DNA of 64,000 bases from sequence record MH752840.1; one strand, written 5' to 3'. A model generated the notes under the pieces. It ran no database searches. It saw only the letters and a list, made by a program, of their open reading frames with translations, and had not been told where the DNA came from. Position numbers and translations under genes: made by a program. Shown piece by piece: positions 15,808 to 51,120 of the stretch. Source of the stretch: Escherichia phage vB_EcoM-Pr121LW. Position 1 is the stretch's first letter. Each line of letters opens with the position of its first letter.

Positions 15808-15875
15808 AAATTATCAACACAGGGGGGTTGCAAAACCTCCTTTGGCGTGATAAAATAATCCACATGGGGAATAAG

Positions 15876-37977: not shown

Positions 37978-38003
37978 GCCCTCGCTTCGGCGGGGGCTTT
38001 TTT
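37978..38003 (+). terminator. rho-independent terminator
   Basis: Hairpin GCCCTCGC-TTCG-GCGGGGGC followed by TTTTTT. Confidence 0.7.
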
Positions 38004-38010
38004 GTTTGTA

Positions 38011-38039
38011 TTGCGTATTAACTCAAAATCTGGTAAAAT
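38011..38039 (+). promoter_or_regulatory. sigma70-like promoter (TTGCGT-N17-TAAAAT)
   Basis: TGGTAAAAT extended -10 pattern upstream of the J-like module. Confidence 0.4.
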
Positions 38040-42600: not shown

Positions 42601-43058
42601 ATAAATACGGTTGGTATATTAACAAGAACGGGCATGCCCAATTTATGGATGTGTGGGTGAAAGGCAACATCAACGCCAGTTCTGGTAACTTCACAGGGGC
42701 AGTTAATGCCACCAGTGGTACCTTCCGTGGAGATGTTTATGCCAATAATGGTAGCTTTAGAGGCACCATAGATGCAACCGGAGGTACATTCCGTGGTCGT
42801 GTAGAAGCTTCTGTTATCCGTGCTAACCAGTTCGAAGGTGCAATTGTTGCACACAGGACTTACGGAGATTGTGCTCCAGTGCATAACTCCCAGCAGAGGG
42901 TTTGCCGTTGGAGGTGGAGATACGTAGATAACGTTTCAGGTCAAGGTAAGAACGTAACATTCTTCTTTAAACTGAACGGTACTCGTGCCAACTCCCAACT
43001 AAATGCGTGGATAGCTGGTCATCAACTCCTTGCTGGCAAGAAGTACGGGAACGGATAA
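39639..43058 (+). CDS. lambda J-like central tail fibre protein, truncated by a tandem duplication
   Basis: 1139 aa; segments (YYWYIRTTNAFGSSAFVE; QWGAKIQVDSHGNKYVAGIQLGMEG ... NNFAVYNPGNG) match lambda J as I recall it; stop falls at the junction of the 127-bp repeat. Confidence 0.7.
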   Translation: MPIAMIDNIVASARSSSYDWNASKAALADSLNTVTTRTLDKIFEGNKSYRSQQDRQKLLRSSAAPCSVVYGKTRTSGLLAFLEQDRDRTLHCAIVLANHPLEGIEDILIDGNPISSYGDLVSWELHNDRKTSDPFMGTHCPSWSPDMIGRGISWLRASFKFDPSKFPFGLPNVTLVKVGKKCYDPRISKEVYTNNAALVILDYLRTYLKCPDETINWESFREAANICDEAVKNADGTSERRYTINGEFDMDEAPASIMAEMLKACGADLSYVAGKYGLLVGAYYGPATMTLSEDCVCGEVKIYPEASFDKRSNTITGRFTSPTKGYSETDFPSVFVPEWIEKDGERKIIDIDYRFVTSPYQAQRVSAIFLRRARAGRIIEVTCNMRGFKFKPGRYVTMDLPSIGIVGQEMRVLEWEFTKKGGVKVKLRQDAKEWNDATGQLPDSGDVDIPISPSGVAQPQNFRYSVLQAGEVTHGVLAWDNVGTYAQNIVQVRKNGEIVWTAQTVEQFVRVEGLTKGSYTATVVATSYKGGVSPEAYCEFNIQAPEAPVSVEVKQGYFAITLIPHSRDLASVSTQYDFWTSGMTRLPDTSDVTVTSKATRMGVGSTWTSEGLQNDKIYYWYIRTTNAFGSSAFVECAAHCYTSIEDLMPQIDAEFKKTETYKELTANLDNAVKEMDKNVGAVNDRVTSIFEELGDTIEGVVRETTEKFTGVNGEISALNSKLVAAQQSFDDKLAAESGRLGSLIETTNRSTVDLVNRKTQALSEQITATQGALREELKNTESKLNSSIQETNKATTDLLNKTTEAIKQDLVAATGKITKLEDDVQKEVANLQASIQETNSTTVDLVNNTATAIRQELTSAKQEIVDEMGNIDELRATVSNTSKAVTTLEGKIDAQWGAKIQVDSHGNKYVAGIQLGMEGSGGQVQSYFMVSANNFAVYNPGNGTATLAFAIKNNQAFLKDAFIENGTISSAKIAQEISSNNYDGNGYHKYGWYINKNGHAQFMDVWVKGNINASSGNFTGAVNATSGTFRGDVYANNGSFRGTIDATGGTFRGRVEASVIRANQFEGAIVAHRTYGDCAPVHNSQQRVCRWRWRYVDNVSGQGKNVTFFFKLNGTRANSQLNAWIAGHQLLAGKKYGNG

Positions 43059-43180
43059 CGTTTCAGGTCAAGGTAAGAACGTAACATTCTTCTTTAAACT
43101 GAACGGTACTCGTGCCAACTCCCAACTAAATGCGTGGATAGCTGGTCATCAACTCCTTGCTGGCAAGAAGTACGGGAACG
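42927..43180 (+). repeat. perfect tandem direct duplication, 2 x 127 bp
   Basis: 42927-43053 and 43054-43180 are identical base for base; 127 is not a multiple of 3. Confidence 0.9.
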
Positions 43181-43365
43181 CCAACGATGGCATGTGTGCA
43201 ATTGGGATAACAGGTCTAGGTGAACAAACTATAGACATTATTATTGAAATCTACACCCCGTGGTCAACGTCAAACGTGACAGGTGTCACAATCTCCTGTC
43301 CCACTGTGATCGTTAGTCGTTCTAACTCAAGCTTCCAGGGACCTTGGAACGAGTCTCACGACTAA
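43054..43365 (+). pseudogene. displaced C-terminal coding segment of the J-like gene (+1 frame)
   Basis: Frame +1 re-encodes DNVSGQGKNVTFFF...KKYGN from repeat copy 2 and continues ANDGMCAIGITG... to a stop at 43365; no independent RBS or ATG. Confidence 0.5.
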
Positions 43366-43370
43366 CCTTT

Positions 43371-43398
43371 AAAGCCCCGCTTCGGCGGGGTTTATTTT
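43371..43398 (+). terminator. rho-independent terminator
   Basis: Hairpin GCCCCGC-TTCG-GCGGGGT followed by a T-run. Confidence 0.7.
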
Positions 43399-44972: not shown

Positions 44973-45659
44973 ATGGCAGAGATTAAGTCGGATGTTAACC
45001 ACATCCACACTCTGCCAGATTTTGTTCAGGGGGGTCTTGACTACCTGCCTGGAGATTTTCTGGCTGAGAAGGTTAATTTAGTCACATTCTTAACCGTGTA
45101 CCTTAAAAGGTTGGAGGATGTTGATAAGATGCTGGTAGGTTTGGCTGAAGGAAGATTGCTTAACAATGCCAGCGGAAGATACCTTGACGAAGTTGGTAAT
45201 CAACTCGGTATTCTTAGGAATGGACTTTCAGATGCTGATTTTCGTGCCACACTAATTATTCAGCAGGCCGCAGCATCAAGGGGCGGGACTCGCGAAGATG
45301 TCATCTCCACCTTGCGACAATTGTTCGGAAGAGACAATTTCGATACGTGGAAAGGAGACAACTTCAGGTTTGACATAAATATTAGAAAAACTTGCTTTGA
45401 CATATTGCAGTCTATTGATCAGATCTTAGACATGCTACCACTGCCTTGTCATTTGCGTCTTACAGAATCGCAAGGGCAAGCTTTTGGTTTTGAAGGTGAC
45501 TCTACAGCTCTTGGCTTCGGATCAGTGTGGGAAGAAAACCAATTCGGAGTTGGTGGGCTGGCTACTTTGCTGTATGTTCCTGACGTAAGACCTGATTGGG
45601 ACACCACAACCATTTATTGTGAAAGCATTACAGTAAACGCAACTAGACAGGAGGGTTAA
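44973..45659 (+). CDS. baseplate protein (gpI-like position)
   Basis: 228-aa ORF immediately after the baseplate J-like gene. Confidence 0.4.
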   Translation: MAEIKSDVNHIHTLPDFVQGGLDYLPGDFLAEKVNLVTFLTVYLKRLEDVDKMLVGLAEGRLLNNASGRYLDEVGNQLGILRNGLSDADFRATLIIQQAAASRGGTREDVISTLRQLFGRDNFDTWKGDNFRFDINIRKTCFDILQSIDQILDMLPLPCHLRLTESQGQAFGFEGDSTALGFGSVWEENQFGVGGLATLLYVPDVRPDWDTTTIYCESITVNATRQEG

Positions 45660-47731
45660 TGGCAACAGCTGTTTTTAAACCTTACCGTGATTACTCTACA
45701 ATGGCTGCACGGTTTCATTACCGCACAGTTCAGGATACTGCCGTTCCTGGTAGGGATTATGATCATGTTGAGGGCGATATAACTATCCCAGTTGGGGCAA
45801 CCAGTATTGAGATTCCAGTGGAAATTGTTGACAAATTACCCAACAGGTTACCAAGAAGCTTCTTTATGGAGTTTTCATCAAAATCTCAAGGGGTGATGAT
45901 TGGAACACAAAGGGCGAAATGCACAATAGTTTCAGATGAGAATCTTGACAGGATATCTTGGGATACTGTCGAGGAGAGAATGTTTCACCCAAGATATTGG
46001 GTTACAACTACTCAGCAGACTGAAAGTACCTGTATTGTTGCAGATGACAACTGTTGTATTAACCGTTTAGTGTCAAGAACATATGGAGGTATGGCTGGGT
46101 GCATTTGGGAAACAGTTGACAAGTATGACCATTTCGGTATTGGGTTTGATGATCACTATGAGATGAGAAACACCAAGCTTTGGTTCAGAATGTCAATAAC
46201 CAATGCCAGCAACTTCTCCACTCCTGAAAAGATGATTATGACTGTAGACCTTGTTGATGGTACAATCATCTATGTTCCTTTAGCTCAATATGCTGTCAGC
46301 ATCTCAGAGGATAAGAATGTTGCAGAGATTCATATTGATTTCGAGGACTGCGTCGGGATGGATCAGAACAACAACATGATGGGTGTTGATCCTCGACAGG
46401 TGAGAAGAATTTTAATACCGCTTATGCCTAAAGACTGGGTAAGTAATAGCACAGACCCGAGAACGGAAAATGTAGAGTGTGAGTTGCGCCTAGATCTGCT
46501 TCAGCCAGACACGGGCTGGAAAATGATGCAACTTAACAATATTCAGGTTAAAGAGCACGACGTTGGGATCTGCACCGCATATGACGATATGTGGAACGTA
46601 TCTCCTTTAAGGGTGTTGAACAATATCAAGCGTCTGGGCTATACCGGAACCATAAACCATTATGTTGGTATGAGTCATTATTATGACTACACATGGTCAG
46701 GAACCCAATGGTCTATAAACAGAACAGGGGCGCTAAACGCTGCAGCTTATAAATGGCATGATGATTTTATGTACAATGCCAAACGACATAACTTCGACGT
46801 TATGCAGTCTGTAAGTTTTGAGCTTTACAGCGATGCCTGCCCGTTGGAATGGACCCAAAGAGACTGGAATGATAACTACGCTAAAACAGGATATACACCT
46901 TGTAGCTACCTCCTGTCTCCAACCATTGAAGAGGGTATGAATTTCCTTACTGCAGTATTTAAGAATTTTGCATCAGCCGCTATGAGAAACAACCTGCCAG
47001 TGATTATGCAGGTTGGTGAACCGTGGTGGTGGTACAATACCGATACTCGTAGACCTTGTATTTATGATTACCCTACAAAACAGGCGTTTTATGATGAGAC
47101 AGGCGAGTATGCCTTAGATATTGGGACTATTGACGATCCTAAAACTGGAGGTGTTTACGACAAGTATGTAGCATTTTGTCGTGGTAAGCTTGGCGCTCGT
47201 ATTGCGGCTATTTCAAAGGCAATAAAGGCGCATGCTGCATCAGCTAAGATGACAGCTCTGCTGTTTTTCCCAACCATTATGGAAACCGAACTTACGCAAA
47301 AGCTTAACCTTGCTGACCAATATAAAAAAGAAGCAGGTGCTCTTGATTTCTTCTGCACTGAGTGCTACGATTGGGTGATGCAGGGAGGTATTGAAAAGGC
47401 AAAAGAGTCTGTAAACATACCTATCGTTAAGTTAGGTTGGCAACCGTCTGAAATACAATACCTTGCAGGGTTCGTTCCTAGTAAAGAGCTTGCTCCGGTA
47501 TATGGATACGACCCAACTAGGAATTACCAAGAATTTTTATGGAGATGTATTTGCGGAAACATGGCAACTATAGAGTATAGATACCCTGAGGTAAAACAGT
47601 ATGTGTGGGCATACCCGCAAGTAATGTCTGACAGCATCACTGTTACCGCTAGAGATTCTACCGTGCTTCATATGGGGCAGGTTGCTCTGAAAGGGTATGT
47701 AGAAGATGTTGTCCCGCCAGACTTCTCATAA
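45659..47731 (+). CDS. virion protein with N-terminal Calx-beta-like domain
   Basis: 690 aa; N-terminal motif TAVPGRDYDHVEGDITIPVGATSIEIPVEIVD ... FFMEF fits the Calx-beta pattern. Confidence 0.45.
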   Translation: MATAVFKPYRDYSTMAARFHYRTVQDTAVPGRDYDHVEGDITIPVGATSIEIPVEIVDKLPNRLPRSFFMEFSSKSQGVMIGTQRAKCTIVSDENLDRISWDTVEERMFHPRYWVTTTQQTESTCIVADDNCCINRLVSRTYGGMAGCIWETVDKYDHFGIGFDDHYEMRNTKLWFRMSITNASNFSTPEKMIMTVDLVDGTIIYVPLAQYAVSISEDKNVAEIHIDFEDCVGMDQNNNMMGVDPRQVRRILIPLMPKDWVSNSTDPRTENVECELRLDLLQPDTGWKMMQLNNIQVKEHDVGICTAYDDMWNVSPLRVLNNIKRLGYTGTINHYVGMSHYYDYTWSGTQWSINRTGALNAAAYKWHDDFMYNAKRHNFDVMQSVSFELYSDACPLEWTQRDWNDNYAKTGYTPCSYLLSPTIEEGMNFLTAVFKNFASAAMRNNLPVIMQVGEPWWWYNTDTRRPCIYDYPTKQAFYDETGEYALDIGTIDDPKTGGVYDKYVAFCRGKLGARIAAISKAIKAHAASAKMTALLFFPTIMETELTQKLNLADQYKKEAGALDFFCTECYDWVMQGGIEKAKESVNIPIVKLGWQPSEIQYLAGFVPSKELAPVYGYDPTRNYQEFLWRCICGNMATIEYRYPEVKQYVWAYPQVMSDSITVTARDSTVLHMGQVALKGYVEDVVPPDFS

Positions 47732-47743
47732 TCAGGAGATAAA

Positions 47744-48784
47744 ATGTCAAAACCTAGTTTTCCATTAGAGATTTGGGCAGAGGAGGATCAGGTTCTGCCT
47801 AACACCCACAGACAGAACAGGCTACGCCCGATTGATGATTTGTGGAGAAAAGGTTGGGATCTTGGTCAAAAGCCCTCATGTGAAGAACTTAACTATATTT
47901 TCAATATGCTCGGAACTTGGGCAAAATATATTGCTGACGAGCAGATCCCCGCTCAAGAAGGCCGTTATCTGGTACGCGATAATAACTTGAGTGATCTTTT
48001 GAACATTCCTGTTGCCCGTAGAAACCTTGGGATTATTACTAAGGAAGAGGCAGACGCCAGGTATGTAAAAGTTACAGGTGATACAATGACAGGCCCACTG
48101 GGTTTGCAACGTATCAACTTTAAAGCTGCCGAGACAGATAAGGCTTGGATAGAGACAACTATTGGCCCAGATAAGACAACTCTCGACTTTGGGTTAAGTG
48201 ATAATACCGGGTCGTTTGATGATGGTGGTACATCTACAGTAGATGCGTTTCGTTGGAGATTCCAGCCAACTCAACCGGATATCAATCCGGAGTTCACTTT
48301 GATGTACCTTAACGCGATCACGGCTAACCGTGCGCTGTTGAAAGTGATAGGCAATGTTGAAGTTGTCGATAACATGAGGTGCAATAACCTTACTATCAGC
48401 AATACAGCAACATTCACCAACTGTAATGTGGCTAGTCAGTTGACGGCTGGGTCAGTGTATGTTAATGGTGGTACAAGTTGTGACAGTATGGTTGTAAGAA
48501 GTCAGCACTGTGTTGTCGGTAACAGAAATGTGGTGCGCTCTGTGAATGGAGTGACGGCTAACGGTAACGGTGATGTAACAATCACTATCCCGCAGACAGG
48601 TGTGCAAGACATCAGAATCGGTGCAAGACTTGTTGACGGCGTTTCTGAATCTCCAATTCGCAACGGCTACGTTGTCACAGGCTGGCATTTCGGTGACAAA
48701 AAAGAGATGCGTGGTTCAACCTACTGGGCAGGACCTTTACAAAAACTTGTAAATGGTCAATGGATCACTGTTAATTATGCATAG
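47744..48784 (+). CDS. tail fibre protein, P2 gpH-like C-terminus
   Basis: 346 aa; C-terminal GPLQKLVNGQWITVNYA resembles the P2 gpH C-terminus; paralogue of the 49799 gene. Confidence 0.6.
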   Translation: MSKPSFPLEIWAEEDQVLPNTHRQNRLRPIDDLWRKGWDLGQKPSCEELNYIFNMLGTWAKYIADEQIPAQEGRYLVRDNNLSDLLNIPVARRNLGIITKEEADARYVKVTGDTMTGPLGLQRINFKAAETDKAWIETTIGPDKTTLDFGLSDNTGSFDDGGTSTVDAFRWRFQPTQPDINPEFTLMYLNAITANRALLKVIGNVEVVDNMRCNNLTISNTATFTNCNVASQLTAGSVYVNGGTSCDSMVVRSQHCVVGNRNVVRSVNGVTANGNGDVTITIPQTGVQDIRIGARLVDGVSESPIRNGYVVTGWHFGDKKEMRGSTYWAGPLQKLVNGQWITVNYA

Positions 48785-48798
48785 ATCGGAGGACTAGC

Positions 48799-49383
48799 AT
48801 GAAAATACTTCAAGAGTTTAAACTTTACCAACCGGGATCTGGCGAATACCACCCTAACAAGGGAACCAAGGAGCTGACCCCTCAAGAGGTTGAGGATTAC
48901 ACCGCATACACTGGGTATTTTTTACGTAATGATGATGGCGATTGGTATGTGCAGTCACGAACATTGCGACAAGAAAATCCGGGTTGTATCTTCCTACTTG
49001 TTGACGAGAAGGGAATTCTTAAGACATCTACAGAAGAACCTGATGCCCTATGGCCTGCTCCAGGTCTTCGTGTGGTTATCGCCAAAAAAGAAGAGGTACC
49101 AGAAAACATTATGCTTCACCACGACGCTTTGCGTTTAGTTGGTGATGAATTTGTCACAGACAATGAATTCTTTGTTCAACAGGCAGAGGGTGTCATAGAG
49201 ACAGAACTTGCTTGGGCTACTGCTAGAATTGGTGCCTATCAAGACATGATTGACCTTGAATATGATCTTACTGATGACCAGAAACGTAACATCAGAGATT
49301 TGAAAATGTACAGGGTAAAACTTCTTGAAATAGATACATCTAAAGCCCCTGACATTTTCTTCCCGGAGCGACCTACCCTCTAA
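48799..49383 (+). CDS. tail fibre assembly chaperone (Tfa-like)
   Basis: 194 aa immediately downstream of the gpH-like fibre; C-terminal region ends APDIFFPERP, typical of Tfa proteins. Confidence 0.55.
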   Translation: MKILQEFKLYQPGSGEYHPNKGTKELTPQEVEDYTAYTGYFLRNDDGDWYVQSRTLRQENPGCIFLLVDEKGILKTSTEEPDALWPAPGLRVVIAKKEEVPENIMLHHDALRLVGDEFVTDNEFFVQQAEGVIETELAWATARIGAYQDMIDLEYDLTDDQKRNIRDLKMYRVKLLEIDTSKAPDIFFPERPTL

Positions 49384-49394
49384 GAGGAGGTGTT

Positions 49395-49709
49395 GTGGAG
49401 TTGGATTTGGCGGCATTGTACGGTATCTGCATGGGTACCGTTGTCCCGATCTGTGTATGGGCTTTCAACCAGTGGCACACCAAATGGAAAGGCATTTCCA
49501 AGAGGTTGGATGAACTGGAGAAAGACCTCATCTTAGTGAAAAACAGTATGGTTACAAAAGATAAACTTGATTCCGTTATCGAGACCCGGTTAAGCAAGCT
49601 AGAGGCCGATATTAACGACCTTAAGCAGGATGTCAGGACAGATGTCTCCGGTATCCGAGCTGATGTACAAAAGATTTTGCACATGCTCGTAGAGCATAGT
49701 AAAAGGTAA
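49395..49709 (+). CDS. small membrane protein with coiled coil
   Basis: 104 aa, GTG start behind GAGGAGG; N-terminal hydrophobic segment LAALYGICMGTVVPICVWAF. Confidence 0.4.
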   Translation: MELDLAALYGICMGTVVPICVWAFNQWHTKWKGISKRLDELEKDLILVKNSMVTKDKLDSVIETRLSKLEADINDLKQDVRTDVSGIRADVQKILHMLVEHSKR

Positions 49710-49739
49710 ACAAAGGTCAGGACGGAAAGGACTCCGTTC

Positions 49740-49768
49740 TTGCATTTTGTTCACTAAAGTGTTAAAAT
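49740..49768 (+). promoter_or_regulatory. sigma70-like promoter (TTGCAT-N17-TAAAAT)
   Basis: Promoter-like hexamers upstream of the second gpH-like fibre gene. Confidence 0.4.
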
Positions 49769-49798
49769 AGTCCTAAGGAATTTTCTCAGGAGAACGTG

Positions 49799-50842
49799 AT
49801 GACTAAACCAGTTATCCCTCTTGATATTTGGGCCAATCAGGATGTTGTGCTTGAAAATACGGGAGAATTGAATAAGTCCCAACCAAAAAAAGAAGAGAGA
49901 CTGAAAGGTTGGGATATGACACAAAGAGTGGCATGTGAAGTTGTTAACTTTGAACTTCACATGCTTTCTGCGTGGTTAAAGCATTTAACAGAAGATGTTG
50001 TCCCAGGATGGGATAATAGATTCTTAAGGGTCACTAATAATCTGGCAGACGTTCCAGACAAAGCTGCTGCACGTCAAGTTCTCAATGTATACTCGCCTGA
50101 AGAAATGGATGACCTTTATGTTGACAAGGCTGGAGACACAATGATCCAGACTCAAACTTTAGGTCTTCAAAGAATCGAGTTTGCATCCGCGTCAACAGAC
50201 AATGCGGCGATATACACCACCATAACTTCAGACAAGACGATGATGGATTTCTGGATTATGGACAACATCGGTGGTGCTGACGGCACAGACCTTGATGATC
50301 CCTCTCACCAAATAGACGGTTTCCGTTGGAGATTTCAACCTTCTGGTGGGCAGCCTGTGTTTTCAGCTATGAAGCTCAATGCTATAACTGCCAACCGTGC
50401 AAGACTGGCTATCCAAGGAAATCTTGAATGCAACGACGCAAAAAGTTCCTCTACAAATGCCAATGCAGCTACTATACCAAGAGCCACTGTTAATGGACAA
50501 CAATCCTGTGGAAGCGCTCAAATAGGTGGAAGAGTTGATTGCAACGATGAAACCGTCAGGGGCCAATATGCAACAGTTGGTGGAAGAAACGTGGTCCGCA
50601 GGGTAAATGGTAACAGCGCAGACGGTAGTGGTAACCTTACTATCCCTATGCCCAGCAGAGGGGTTGATGATGTGAGGATAGCAAACCGTTTCAAAACCAC
50701 CTACAGAGAGTCAAGAGTCTACCCTGGACATGTGATGTGCTCGGGTAACTACGCTTATAAACACCCTTATCAAGGTGATTACTGGACAGGTGCTATCCAA
50801 AAACTTGTAAATGGTCAATGGATCACTATATCTTATGCTTAA
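49799..50842 (+). CDS. tail fibre protein, second P2 gpH-like paralogue
   Basis: N-terminus PLDIWANQD and C-terminus GAIQKLVNGQWITISYA parallel the 47744 gene; start at ATG 49799 behind AGGAGA. Confidence 0.6.
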   Translation: MTKPVIPLDIWANQDVVLENTGELNKSQPKKEERLKGWDMTQRVACEVVNFELHMLSAWLKHLTEDVVPGWDNRFLRVTNNLADVPDKAAARQVLNVYSPEEMDDLYVDKAGDTMIQTQTLGLQRIEFASASTDNAAIYTTITSDKTMMDFWIMDNIGGADGTDLDDPSHQIDGFRWRFQPSGGQPVFSAMKLNAITANRARLAIQGNLECNDAKSSSTNANAATIPRATVNGQQSCGSAQIGGRVDCNDETVRGQYATVGGRNVVRRVNGNSADGSGNLTIPMPSRGVDDVRIANRFKTTYRESRVYPGHVMCSGNYAYKHPYQGDYWTGAIQKLVNGQWITISYA

Positions 50843-50853
50843 AAAGAGGGTAA

Positions 50854-51120
50854 ATGAAACTAACTCAGTTTTTATGGGGACTGGTTGCGGCATCTGATGA
50901 CCCTACGAAAGTGTCCCAATCTAAGCTATGGTCAAACATAGGTATGGCGGTGATGACTGGGGTGTTTATTCATATGGGGTATAATGATACGCTTCCTGAA
51001 TGGTATGCGTGGATATATGCGCCTTCGGTAGCTTGCCCCCAGCTTATTAGCAAATTCATCTCGCTCCGGTGGGGTTGCCAGCACCCTGACCACGTTAAAA
51101 ACGAAGAGCAAAAAGCTTAA
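50854..51120 (+). CDS. small membrane protein
   Basis: 88-aa ORF with two hydrophobic segments; behind an AGAGGG RBS. Confidence 0.4.
   Translation: MKLTQFLWGLVAASDDPTKVSQSKLWSNIGMAVMTGVFIHMGYNDTLPEWYAWIYAPSVACPQLISKFISLRWGCQHPDHVKNEEQKA

Follow-up and report, generated by a model that had tools for sequence, protein, structure and literature searches.

The best-described relative of the locus considered here is that of phage rV5, whose virions contain two short tail fibre proteins, gp30 and gp33 (found by mass spectrometry), and the tail fibre assembly chaperone (Tfa) gp32; gp30 and gp33 are 42.3% identical, both show HHpred similarity to 1PDI, and two lipopolysaccharide (LPS) chemotypes have been suggested as their targets (Kropinski et al. 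2013, PMC3606486). Homology of the paralogous short tail fibres and their chaperone to GpS/GpU of phage Mu, and to the one such locus that phi92-like phages have, has also been described (Maffei et al. 2021, PMC8594841, S5D Fig), and the same work reports that rV5-like phages require the outer-core glucose of LPS. The subject of what follows is the corresponding locus of Escherichia phage vB_EcoM-Pr121LW (sequence record MH752840.1), contained in a stretch of 64,000 nt, all of which was analysed ("the window"; positions count from its first nucleotide), and, more particularly, a block of DNA that its two short tail fibre genes, STF-A and STF-B, share exactly near their 3' ends. The 3.7-kb region around the fibre pair is 99.2% identical in DNA sequence to Escherichia phage MiataMamis and ~98% identical to rV5 and to more than 100 other Vequintavirus genomes: on this similarity the window is assigned to a Vequintavirus (an rV5-like myophage) and the region is its short-tail-fibre locus, with rV5 gp33, gp32 and gp30 encoded by the same genes as STF-A, Tfa and STF-B.

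An earlier, sequence-only reading had taken the gene pair for a duplicated, diverging receptor-binding cassette. The genes are indeed paralogs; their paralogy and the idea of two receptors had already been published (PMC3606486, PMC8594841). The identical block of DNA, the concerted evolution of the 3' ends, and the placement of STF-B where other phages have a phiTE_239-type gene are unmentioned in the literature searched on the rV5 locus. The gene pair and its likely role are thus already described; what is new, the proposed gene-conversion footprint, is a modest addition of a kind already familiar.

The familiarity comes from other phages. Recombination at conserved motifs in the distal tail fibre genes of the T-even phages was reportedly described by Tetart et al. 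in 1998, and Haggard-Ljungquist et al. are said to have described, in 1992, how P2, Mu, P1 and lambda exchange fibre tips horizontally. The likeness lies in short conserved coding motifs that serve as sites of homologous exchange and in the mosaic fibre ends that result. The differences are that the partners at this locus are paralogs residing in one genome, and that the outcome is homogenization of very short tracts rather than a swap of adhesin specificity between phages. The locus also differs from the Mu G-segment and the P1 C-segment: its repeats are direct instead of inverted, and its alternative tips reside on two complete genes instead of on switchable 3' ends. (An invertible segment or programmed switch was considered and set aside, given the direct orientation of the repeats; such inverted repeats as occur are weak and scattered, and none of nine neighbouring proteins that were scanned contains a recombinase domain.)

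STF-A and STF-B, recognized as paralogs in the sequence-only reading, are identical at 153 of 352 residues (43%; BLASTP, E 2e-95), and their genes at 52% of nucleotides overall. The ~30 nt of identical DNA that had been noticed near their 3' ends come to exactly 30 (Table 1), encode QKLVNGQWIT, and lie within a 62-nt stretch of 84% DNA identity. The two copies, the only ones in the window, are direct repeats placed within the last 15 codons of each gene, and the next longest exact run between the genes is 12 nt. When the genes are aligned by codon, residues that are identical and degenerate use the same codon in nine out of nine cases inside the block vs. 42 of 134 (31%) outside it, where the two genes are saturated at synonymous sites. 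The identity of the block is real and beyond chance, because permuting codon columns reached 30 nt in none of 5000 trials, and because the codon usage of neighbouring genes gives P = 1.3e-4 for ten identical codons. A second, weaker island of raised DNA similarity (79% identity, with an 11-nt exact run) coincides with a central peptide motif. The peptides quoted earlier as shared by the two proteins are present, except that this motif reads AFRWRFQP in STF-A and GFRWRFQP in STF-B, so that FRWRFQP is the common part. In the lineage designated L023 the same island contains a 20-nt exact run.

Why should so short a stretch of DNA remain identical when the rest of the two genes has drifted to saturation? 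Comparison with relatives speaks to the question at three levels of divergence. Within Vequintavirus, both copies retain at least 28 nt of the block in ~82 of 113 records; about a quarter of the genus no longer has exact identity, which consequently is not required. Among 18 genomes of the genus that were compared, the block has synonymous variants (in copy A: CAG, AAG and AAC; in copy B: AAC, ACC and ACG, together with one Leu>Phe replacement). In the FV3-like phages the copies differ by two to four mismatches, and both genes are kept. In Aya and ECP2303, which are otherwise rV5-like, AAT has become AAC in both copies.

More divergent two-fibre lineages (L numbers) were sought by protein search with STF-B and by looking up the contigs; IMG/VR yielded five loci, all of them close relatives. 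In L022/L024, whose STF-B is 79% identical to that of the window, a 29-nt block common to A and B occupies the same place (none of 5000 permutations). It departs from the window's block by three synonymous differences (CTG, GTC, CAG), every one of them present in both copies. Overall, the synonymous sites of the block differ between the window and the L022 lineages at three to four of nine, which is close to the frequency of difference at those third positions where A and B of the window agree (~41-43%).

At still greater distance the shared tracts occupy different places. In L026, a member of a sister clade (STF-B ~50% identical), exact A/B identity extends over 110 nt of the tip domain; the block itself is not identical there, and comparison with L025 and L030 has copy A carrying B-type sequence over the 110-nt tract. 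In L030 a 30-nt exact tract is shifted upstream, over GYWAAPLQKL. In L025 the longest exact run is 23 nt, with 76% DNA identity of the 3' end and tip vs. ~50% in the body of the genes. Trees made separately for two segments of the proteins (simple distance, 100 bootstraps) conflict: for residues 1-286 the A copies form one clade and the B copies another (each in 100 of 100 bootstraps), while from residue 287 to the end the A and B copies of L025 and L026 group with each other (also 100 of 100).

It appears probable that the identical block is the footprint of recurrent, short gene conversion between the 3' ends of the two fibre genes and that it is not a dedicated site. This is inferred because 1) synonymous sites of the block drift between lineages and yet match within a genome, 2) the tracts differ from lineage to lineage, and 3) the segment trees conflict. 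That the block was simply retained from the original duplication is contradicted by the saturation of the rest of the two genes and by the change of the block's synonymous sites between lineages. The steps might be these: the bodies of the fibres would have diverged to saturation, leaving only those protein motifs that must stay identical to keep the DNA similar enough to seed homologous recombination; the conversion tracts that survive would be those altering no residue specific to one paralog, a residue-neutral tract being neutral; the outcome would be non-reciprocal, short conversion at the 3' ends, with the block as both by-product and substrate. The sequence-only reading had spoken of a "retained recombination handle". 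Recombination at the 3' ends has happened, as that phrase implies, but the block would be renewed by conversion rather than retained, and selection of it as a handle is unsupported.

Several considerations weigh against gene conversion as the explanation. All of the evidence for it is comparative. The co-variation of AAT and AAC in Aya and ECP2303 is a matter of a single site, and could have arisen by repeated mutation or by transfer from phage to phage. When the whole genes are tested, the window and the L022 lineages show no significant excess of concordant synonymous changes (odds ratio 2.2, p = 0.2), and the case therefore rests on the localized tracts. Four arginine codons have changed from CGN to AGA/AGN in both L022 paralogs relative to the window (A nt 274, 508-510, 586 and 793-795), which could be a lineage-wide shift of codon preference rather than micro-conversion at conserved motifs. 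The constraint that Tfa is presumed to place on the C-terminal strand is borrowed from phage Mu (PMC9608196). Finally, structural support for the tip of STF-B is wanting: on its own, STF-B has no significant match to Mu S in the PDB or to P2 H, and its AlphaFold2 model, built on a 10-sequence alignment, is unusable (mean pLDDT 31.5, pTM 0.19). (A count of shared polymorphisms, 138 observed vs. 129 expected, is uninformative because one clade is very divergent.)

What else might account for the block? In one variant of the recombinational explanation the invariant C-terminal strand would be a homology anchor, selected for copying tip domains between the paralogs or between co-infecting relatives, as the 110-nt B-to-A tract of L026 might illustrate. 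We regard this as unlikely. If it were true, the locus would be a recombinase-free two-slot system that keeps both tips compatible with Tfa or shifts LPS-core specificity.

The notion of the block itself as a selected handle, paired with a conserved 5' anchor and swapping receptor-binding segments between paralogs or co-infecting phages (a recombinase-free host-range cassette), is distinctly doubtful. It draws on the same transfer of ~110 nt of tip sequence from B to A in L026, on the wider mobility of the tip (the A-type tip is 58.6% identical to the fibre ends of unrelated 52-kb Salmonella phages), and on the prevalence of the block in Vequintavirus. What it requires at the other end of the exchanged segment is absent, however: the longest exact run elsewhere in the genes is the 12-nt one already mentioned, so no 5' homology matches the block, which has almost nothing flanking it on its 3' side. 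A crossover between the direct repeats would delete Tfa and most of STF-B, and neither a deletion product nor a swapped A/B architecture is seen in 113 full-length relatives. Identity has decayed in the FV3-like phages and in L025/L026, which nonetheless keep both genes, and the block is confined to Vequintavirus instead of recurring in other fibre genes.

Two further explanations are very improbable, and to the same degree. One takes the block for an element that functions as nucleic acid: a binding site for a protein or small RNA, a structure affecting translation of the next gene, or the target of one regulator of both genes. Such an element would account for the exact match of nine synonymous sites across most of the genus, but its sequence would hardly be free to differ at three to four of those sites between lineages while remaining common to both copies, nor to lose identity in the FV3-like phages and L025/L026. 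Moreover, the two copies are followed by unrelated genes (Tfa and the 88-aa open reading frame (ORF), respectively), the ribosome-binding sites lie outside the block, and Rfam has no match between 47000 and 51500. The other would have both genes separately acquire the same 3' end from a third source, by way of other phages. Fibre tips do pass from phage to phage, and unrelated Salmonella phages have A-type ones; still, a search of 50,697 phage records finds the 30-mer and its near matches in Vequintavirus only, and tracts that are shared within a genome but differ between lineages would need repeated double acquisitions. As to mere codon preference acting on a strongly conserved peptide, or an error of assembly (the window does contain one probable artefact elsewhere, described below), these are hardly credible in the face of the permutation and codon-usage results and of ~82 independent records with the block in both copies.

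Gene conversion, if it is what maintains the block, acts on the tips of proteins with a composite ancestry. Both fibres match the phrog_4465 profile from end to end (STF-A 4.3e-171, STF-B 2.5e-164). Their N-termini are homologous to the first ~100 residues of the short tail fibre of phiTE, a Certrevirus (PDB 9cuy/9mjn, PMC11972413): against 9cuy_c, residues 1-108 of STF-A match at 1.4e-19, residues 1-83 of STF-B at 1.9e-8, and the profile of the A+B family at 9e-26. In phiTE, residues 3-92 are the joint that fixes the fibre trimer to the baseplate wedge (PMC11972413), and by this homology both short tail fibres of the window are predicted to keep a phiTE-type baseplate-attachment domain, the structural role of which is taken from that work. 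The phiTE fibre differs in its length of 554 aa, in its coiled coil and Ig-like domains, and in being encoded by a single gene, in a flagellotropic phage.

The other end of the fibres points elsewhere. Residues 286-343 of STF-A match residues 440-501 of Mu gpS (5yvq_A) at 1.9e-6, and the A+B family profile matches 5yvq at 1.3e-7. Residues 609-666 of P2 H align with the C-terminal tip of STF-A (28% identity over 64 residues, E 0.001) and weakly with that of STF-B (26%, E 0.12). A strand of the form P-x-QK-x-(V/I)-NG-x-W at the C-terminal end is conserved from Mu S and P2 H through all of the fibres compared. It is on these matches that both short tail fibres are judged to keep a tip of the Mu GpS/P2 H type, consisting of the last ~60 residues and ending in the almost invariant strand. 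The label "P2 gpH-like", which the genes had been given, accordingly fits those ~60 residues at most: the N-terminus is of the phiTE type, and the P2 H domains of Pfam are missing. PF12571 (the N-terminal tail-collar fibre domain) has no match in either fibre even at E <= 10, with P2 H itself scoring 3.2e-57; PF03406 (phage tail fibre repeats) and Gp34_trimer are present in P2 H and absent from both. Searched with single sequences or with the family profile, the PDB returned no chain of T4 gp12 at E <= 1.

The tip of STF-A (residues 287-344, encoded at 48602-48775) is 57-59% identical to the fibre C-termini of a group of ~52-kb Salmonella myophages (SE-SHZ-R, PA13076, brorfarstad, yarpen and birk). 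It is as close to these unrelated phages as to the tip of the single fibre of phage Av-05, which suggests that an A-type tip module moves between phage groups. Most likely the two fibres provide the virion with two related tips that differ in fine LPS-core specificity, as was proposed for rV5 in 2013; the receptor specificities, like the placement of both fibres on the baseplate, are inferred.

A single Tfa serves the locus. The chaperone noted behind the first fibre gene is confirmed by a Pfam Caudo_TAP match at 1.3e-11 over residues 122-192 and by phrog_136 at 3.6e-36. Homology of the last ~60 residues of the fibre (weaker in the case of P2), with a Tfa gene following, is what this locus has in common with Mu GpS/GpU and P2 gpH/gpG; moreover, rV5 gp32 is found in virions, as is Mu Tfa. 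When six Tfa proteins are aligned, conservation is seen in the C-terminal half, and insertions, deletions and divergence gather in the N-terminal half. In the Mu chaperone, binding to the distal fibre is the task of the variable N-terminal domain, which remains in the virion; assembly is driven by the conserved C-terminal one (PMC9608196). Folding of the tips of both STF-A and STF-B may likewise depend on the one Tfa.

How did the second fibre gene come to be where it is? Two copies are found only in Vequintavirus records; the Avunavirus, Seunavirus-like, Mydovirus, Cronobacter and phi92-like phages have one. STF-A sits where Av-05 and R7 have their single short tail fibre gene, with 47.6% and 44.7% identity, respectively, and STF-B is 38.5% identical to the Av-05 fibre. 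Beyond its own orthologs the closest relative of STF-B is STF-A (43%, vs. 36-39.5% to full-length single-copy fibres). By position and sequence STF-A is thus best equated, as positional ortholog, with the one short tail fibre that Avunavirus and the Seunavirus-like phages have, and STF-B is best taken as the more divergent copy, with a lineage-specific tip. In Av-05, R7 and L031 the order is short tail fibre, Tfa, 104-aa ORF, a 157-aa polytopic membrane ORF (Pfam Phage_phiTE_239), a small membrane ORF, and the next fibre. The 157-aa ORF (L007:5949-6422, L008:5997-6470, L031:5958-6431) lies in the slot that corresponds to 49710-50850 of the window, which is taken by STF-B. The ancestral single fibre gene (STF-A together with Tfa and the small ORF) would have been duplicated before the known two-fibre lineages split, and the copy, STF-B, would have been placed ~2 kb downstream, in the slot of the phiTE_239-type membrane protein of the sister genera, behind a terminator and a promoter.

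The wider order is also kept. In AlexBoehm, Av-05, L022-L026, L030, R7 and L031 the locus comes after the baseplate wedge genes and before a phiTE_241-type fibre, and Tfa follows the first short tail fibre. A gene for an N4 gp65-like fibre stands directly upstream of the first short tail fibre in the E. coli-type relatives and is missing there in R7 and L031. The annotation of AlexBoehm calls the same genes, in order, short tail fibre, tail fibre chaperone, hypothetical, short tail fibre, and hypothetical; flanking them are a lateral fibre with glycosidase/deacetylase domains on one side and further lateral fibres on the other. (A note on database records: at least 16 entries of the MG0656xx series, e.g. 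MG065654 and MG065662, are named "Campylobacter phage" with C. jejuni as host, and are ~98% identical to this E. coli rV5-type locus. Their host labels look doubtful.)

STF-B is separated from the genes in front of it by predicted transcription signals. A hairpin with a T-tract, resembling an intrinsic terminator, follows the 104-aa ORF. It persists in the divergent lineages, where both partners have changed in two of its pairs. A consensus fold across lineages recovers only three pairs, because the stems align poorly; the individual hairpins are clearer. The promoter-like site that had been credited to the second gene is present and conserved: both of its hexamers are invariant in four lineages with diverged flanks, and in phage Gotham PhagePromoter predicts a promoter at the equivalent position. 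A generic sigma-70 scan does not list it, because its -35 element, TTGCAT, matches at just three of six positions. It is accepted on its conservation and on its membership of a motif family of the phage's own. Of the motif TGNTAAAATA the window has seven copies, vs. 0.8 expected, and all are on the + strand; the sites, of the general form TTGnnn-N14-TGnTAAAATA, are at 15848, 20360, 23882, 37892, 38031, 43429 and 49760, and six of them follow a TTGnnn element and have an ORF 6-43 nt downstream. The family matches the TggTAaAAtA motif found upstream of rV5 late genes (PMC3606486). It is therefore predicted that STF-B has its own, conserved, phage-type extended -10 promoter. Similar GC-rich hairpin and T-tract terminators (CCyCGCTTCGGCGGGG...) at 37980-38003 and 43375-43398 precede the motifs at 38031 and 43429 by ~30-50 nt, in the same terminator-then-promoter order as is found before STF-B.

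The remaining genes of the locus can be dealt with briefly. The small protein behind Tfa, earlier called a membrane protein, does have an N-terminal hydrophobic segment (residues 5-23, Kyte-Doolittle 1.9). Its 104-aa ORF directly follows Tfa in every lineage examined, with one fibre or two (Av-05, R7, L022, L025, L026 and L031), and is labelled a tail fibre protein in some records. Synteny also places the 88-aa ORF downstream of the fibre locus in relatives. The 690-aa protein encoded upstream of STF-A (45659-47731), the N4 gp65-like fibre of the window, combines a Calx-beta domain with N-terminal and TIM-barrel domains of a "non-contractile tail sheath protein" (PF23844, PF23845); fibres of this kind have been tied to NGR polysaccharide binding in a 2026 preprint.

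The probable artefact alluded to above is at some distance from the fibre pair: a perfect tandem duplication of 127 nt (42927-43053 and 43054-43180) within the gene for the large lateral tail fibre (start 39639; the homolog of rV5 gp37). Since 127 is not a multiple of three, the lateral fibre ORF stops at 43058, and a 111-aa remnant ORF is left at 43030-43365. The region measures 574-575 nt in 12 listed relatives, which therefore lack the duplication, vs. 701 in the window, and 116 matching records give no differing picture. As 127 is the largest SPAdes k-mer, the duplication most likely has no biological meaning and is a circular-contig overlap that was left untrimmed.

Table 1. Positions in the window of the short tail fibre genes, the DNA they share, and adjoining features.
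Feature	Position	Strand	Description
STF-A	47744-48784	+	346 aa; short tail fibre paralog A, rV5 gp33 equivalent; phrog_4465
Second island of raised DNA similarity (FRWRFQP)	48240-48267, pairs with 50313-50340	+	79% identical, 11-nt exact run
30-nt block, copy A	48740-48769	+	Codons for QKLVNGQWIT; exact match to copy B; read as a probable gene-conversion tract
Tfa, tail fibre assembly chaperone	48799-49383	+	rV5 gp32 equivalent; sole Tfa in the locus
104-aa ORF	49395-49709	+	phrog_5345 (1e-48); N-terminal hydrophobic segment, then likely coiled coil
Intrinsic-terminator-like hairpin and T-tract	49719-49750	+	Scan match, 8 pairs; ends the STF-A/Tfa/104-aa ORF unit
STF-B promoter (predicted)	49740-49769	+	TTGCAT, 17-nt spacer, extended -10 TGTTAAAAT(A)
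STF-B	49799-50842	+	347 aa; short tail fibre paralog B, rV5 gp30 equivalent; phrog_4465; start at ATG 49799 as annotated in relatives (ORF listing extends upstream to GTG 49796)
30-nt block, copy B	50798-50827	+	Exact match to copy A
88-aa small protein	50854-51120	+	Annotated as membrane protein; phrog_1322 (2.7e-32); follows STF-B

The rV5-like phages are broad-host-range coliphages that figure in collections for typing, biocontrol and therapy, and their irreversible adsorption depends on the short fibres, so that the history of these genes has practical implications. The two fibres would be old paralogs whose tips have escaped homogenization in Vequintavirus and not in the sister clade, with short tracts still being copied. 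Within Vequintavirus it is therefore advisable to regard the A and B tip domains as separate alleles. Alignments and trees based on the 3' ends will mislead, and recoding the shared block should stabilize engineered constructs, points that are useful for fibre engineering and for the prediction of receptors from sequence. One can think of the locus as a small example of concerted evolution inside a phage genome, and not as a new mechanism.

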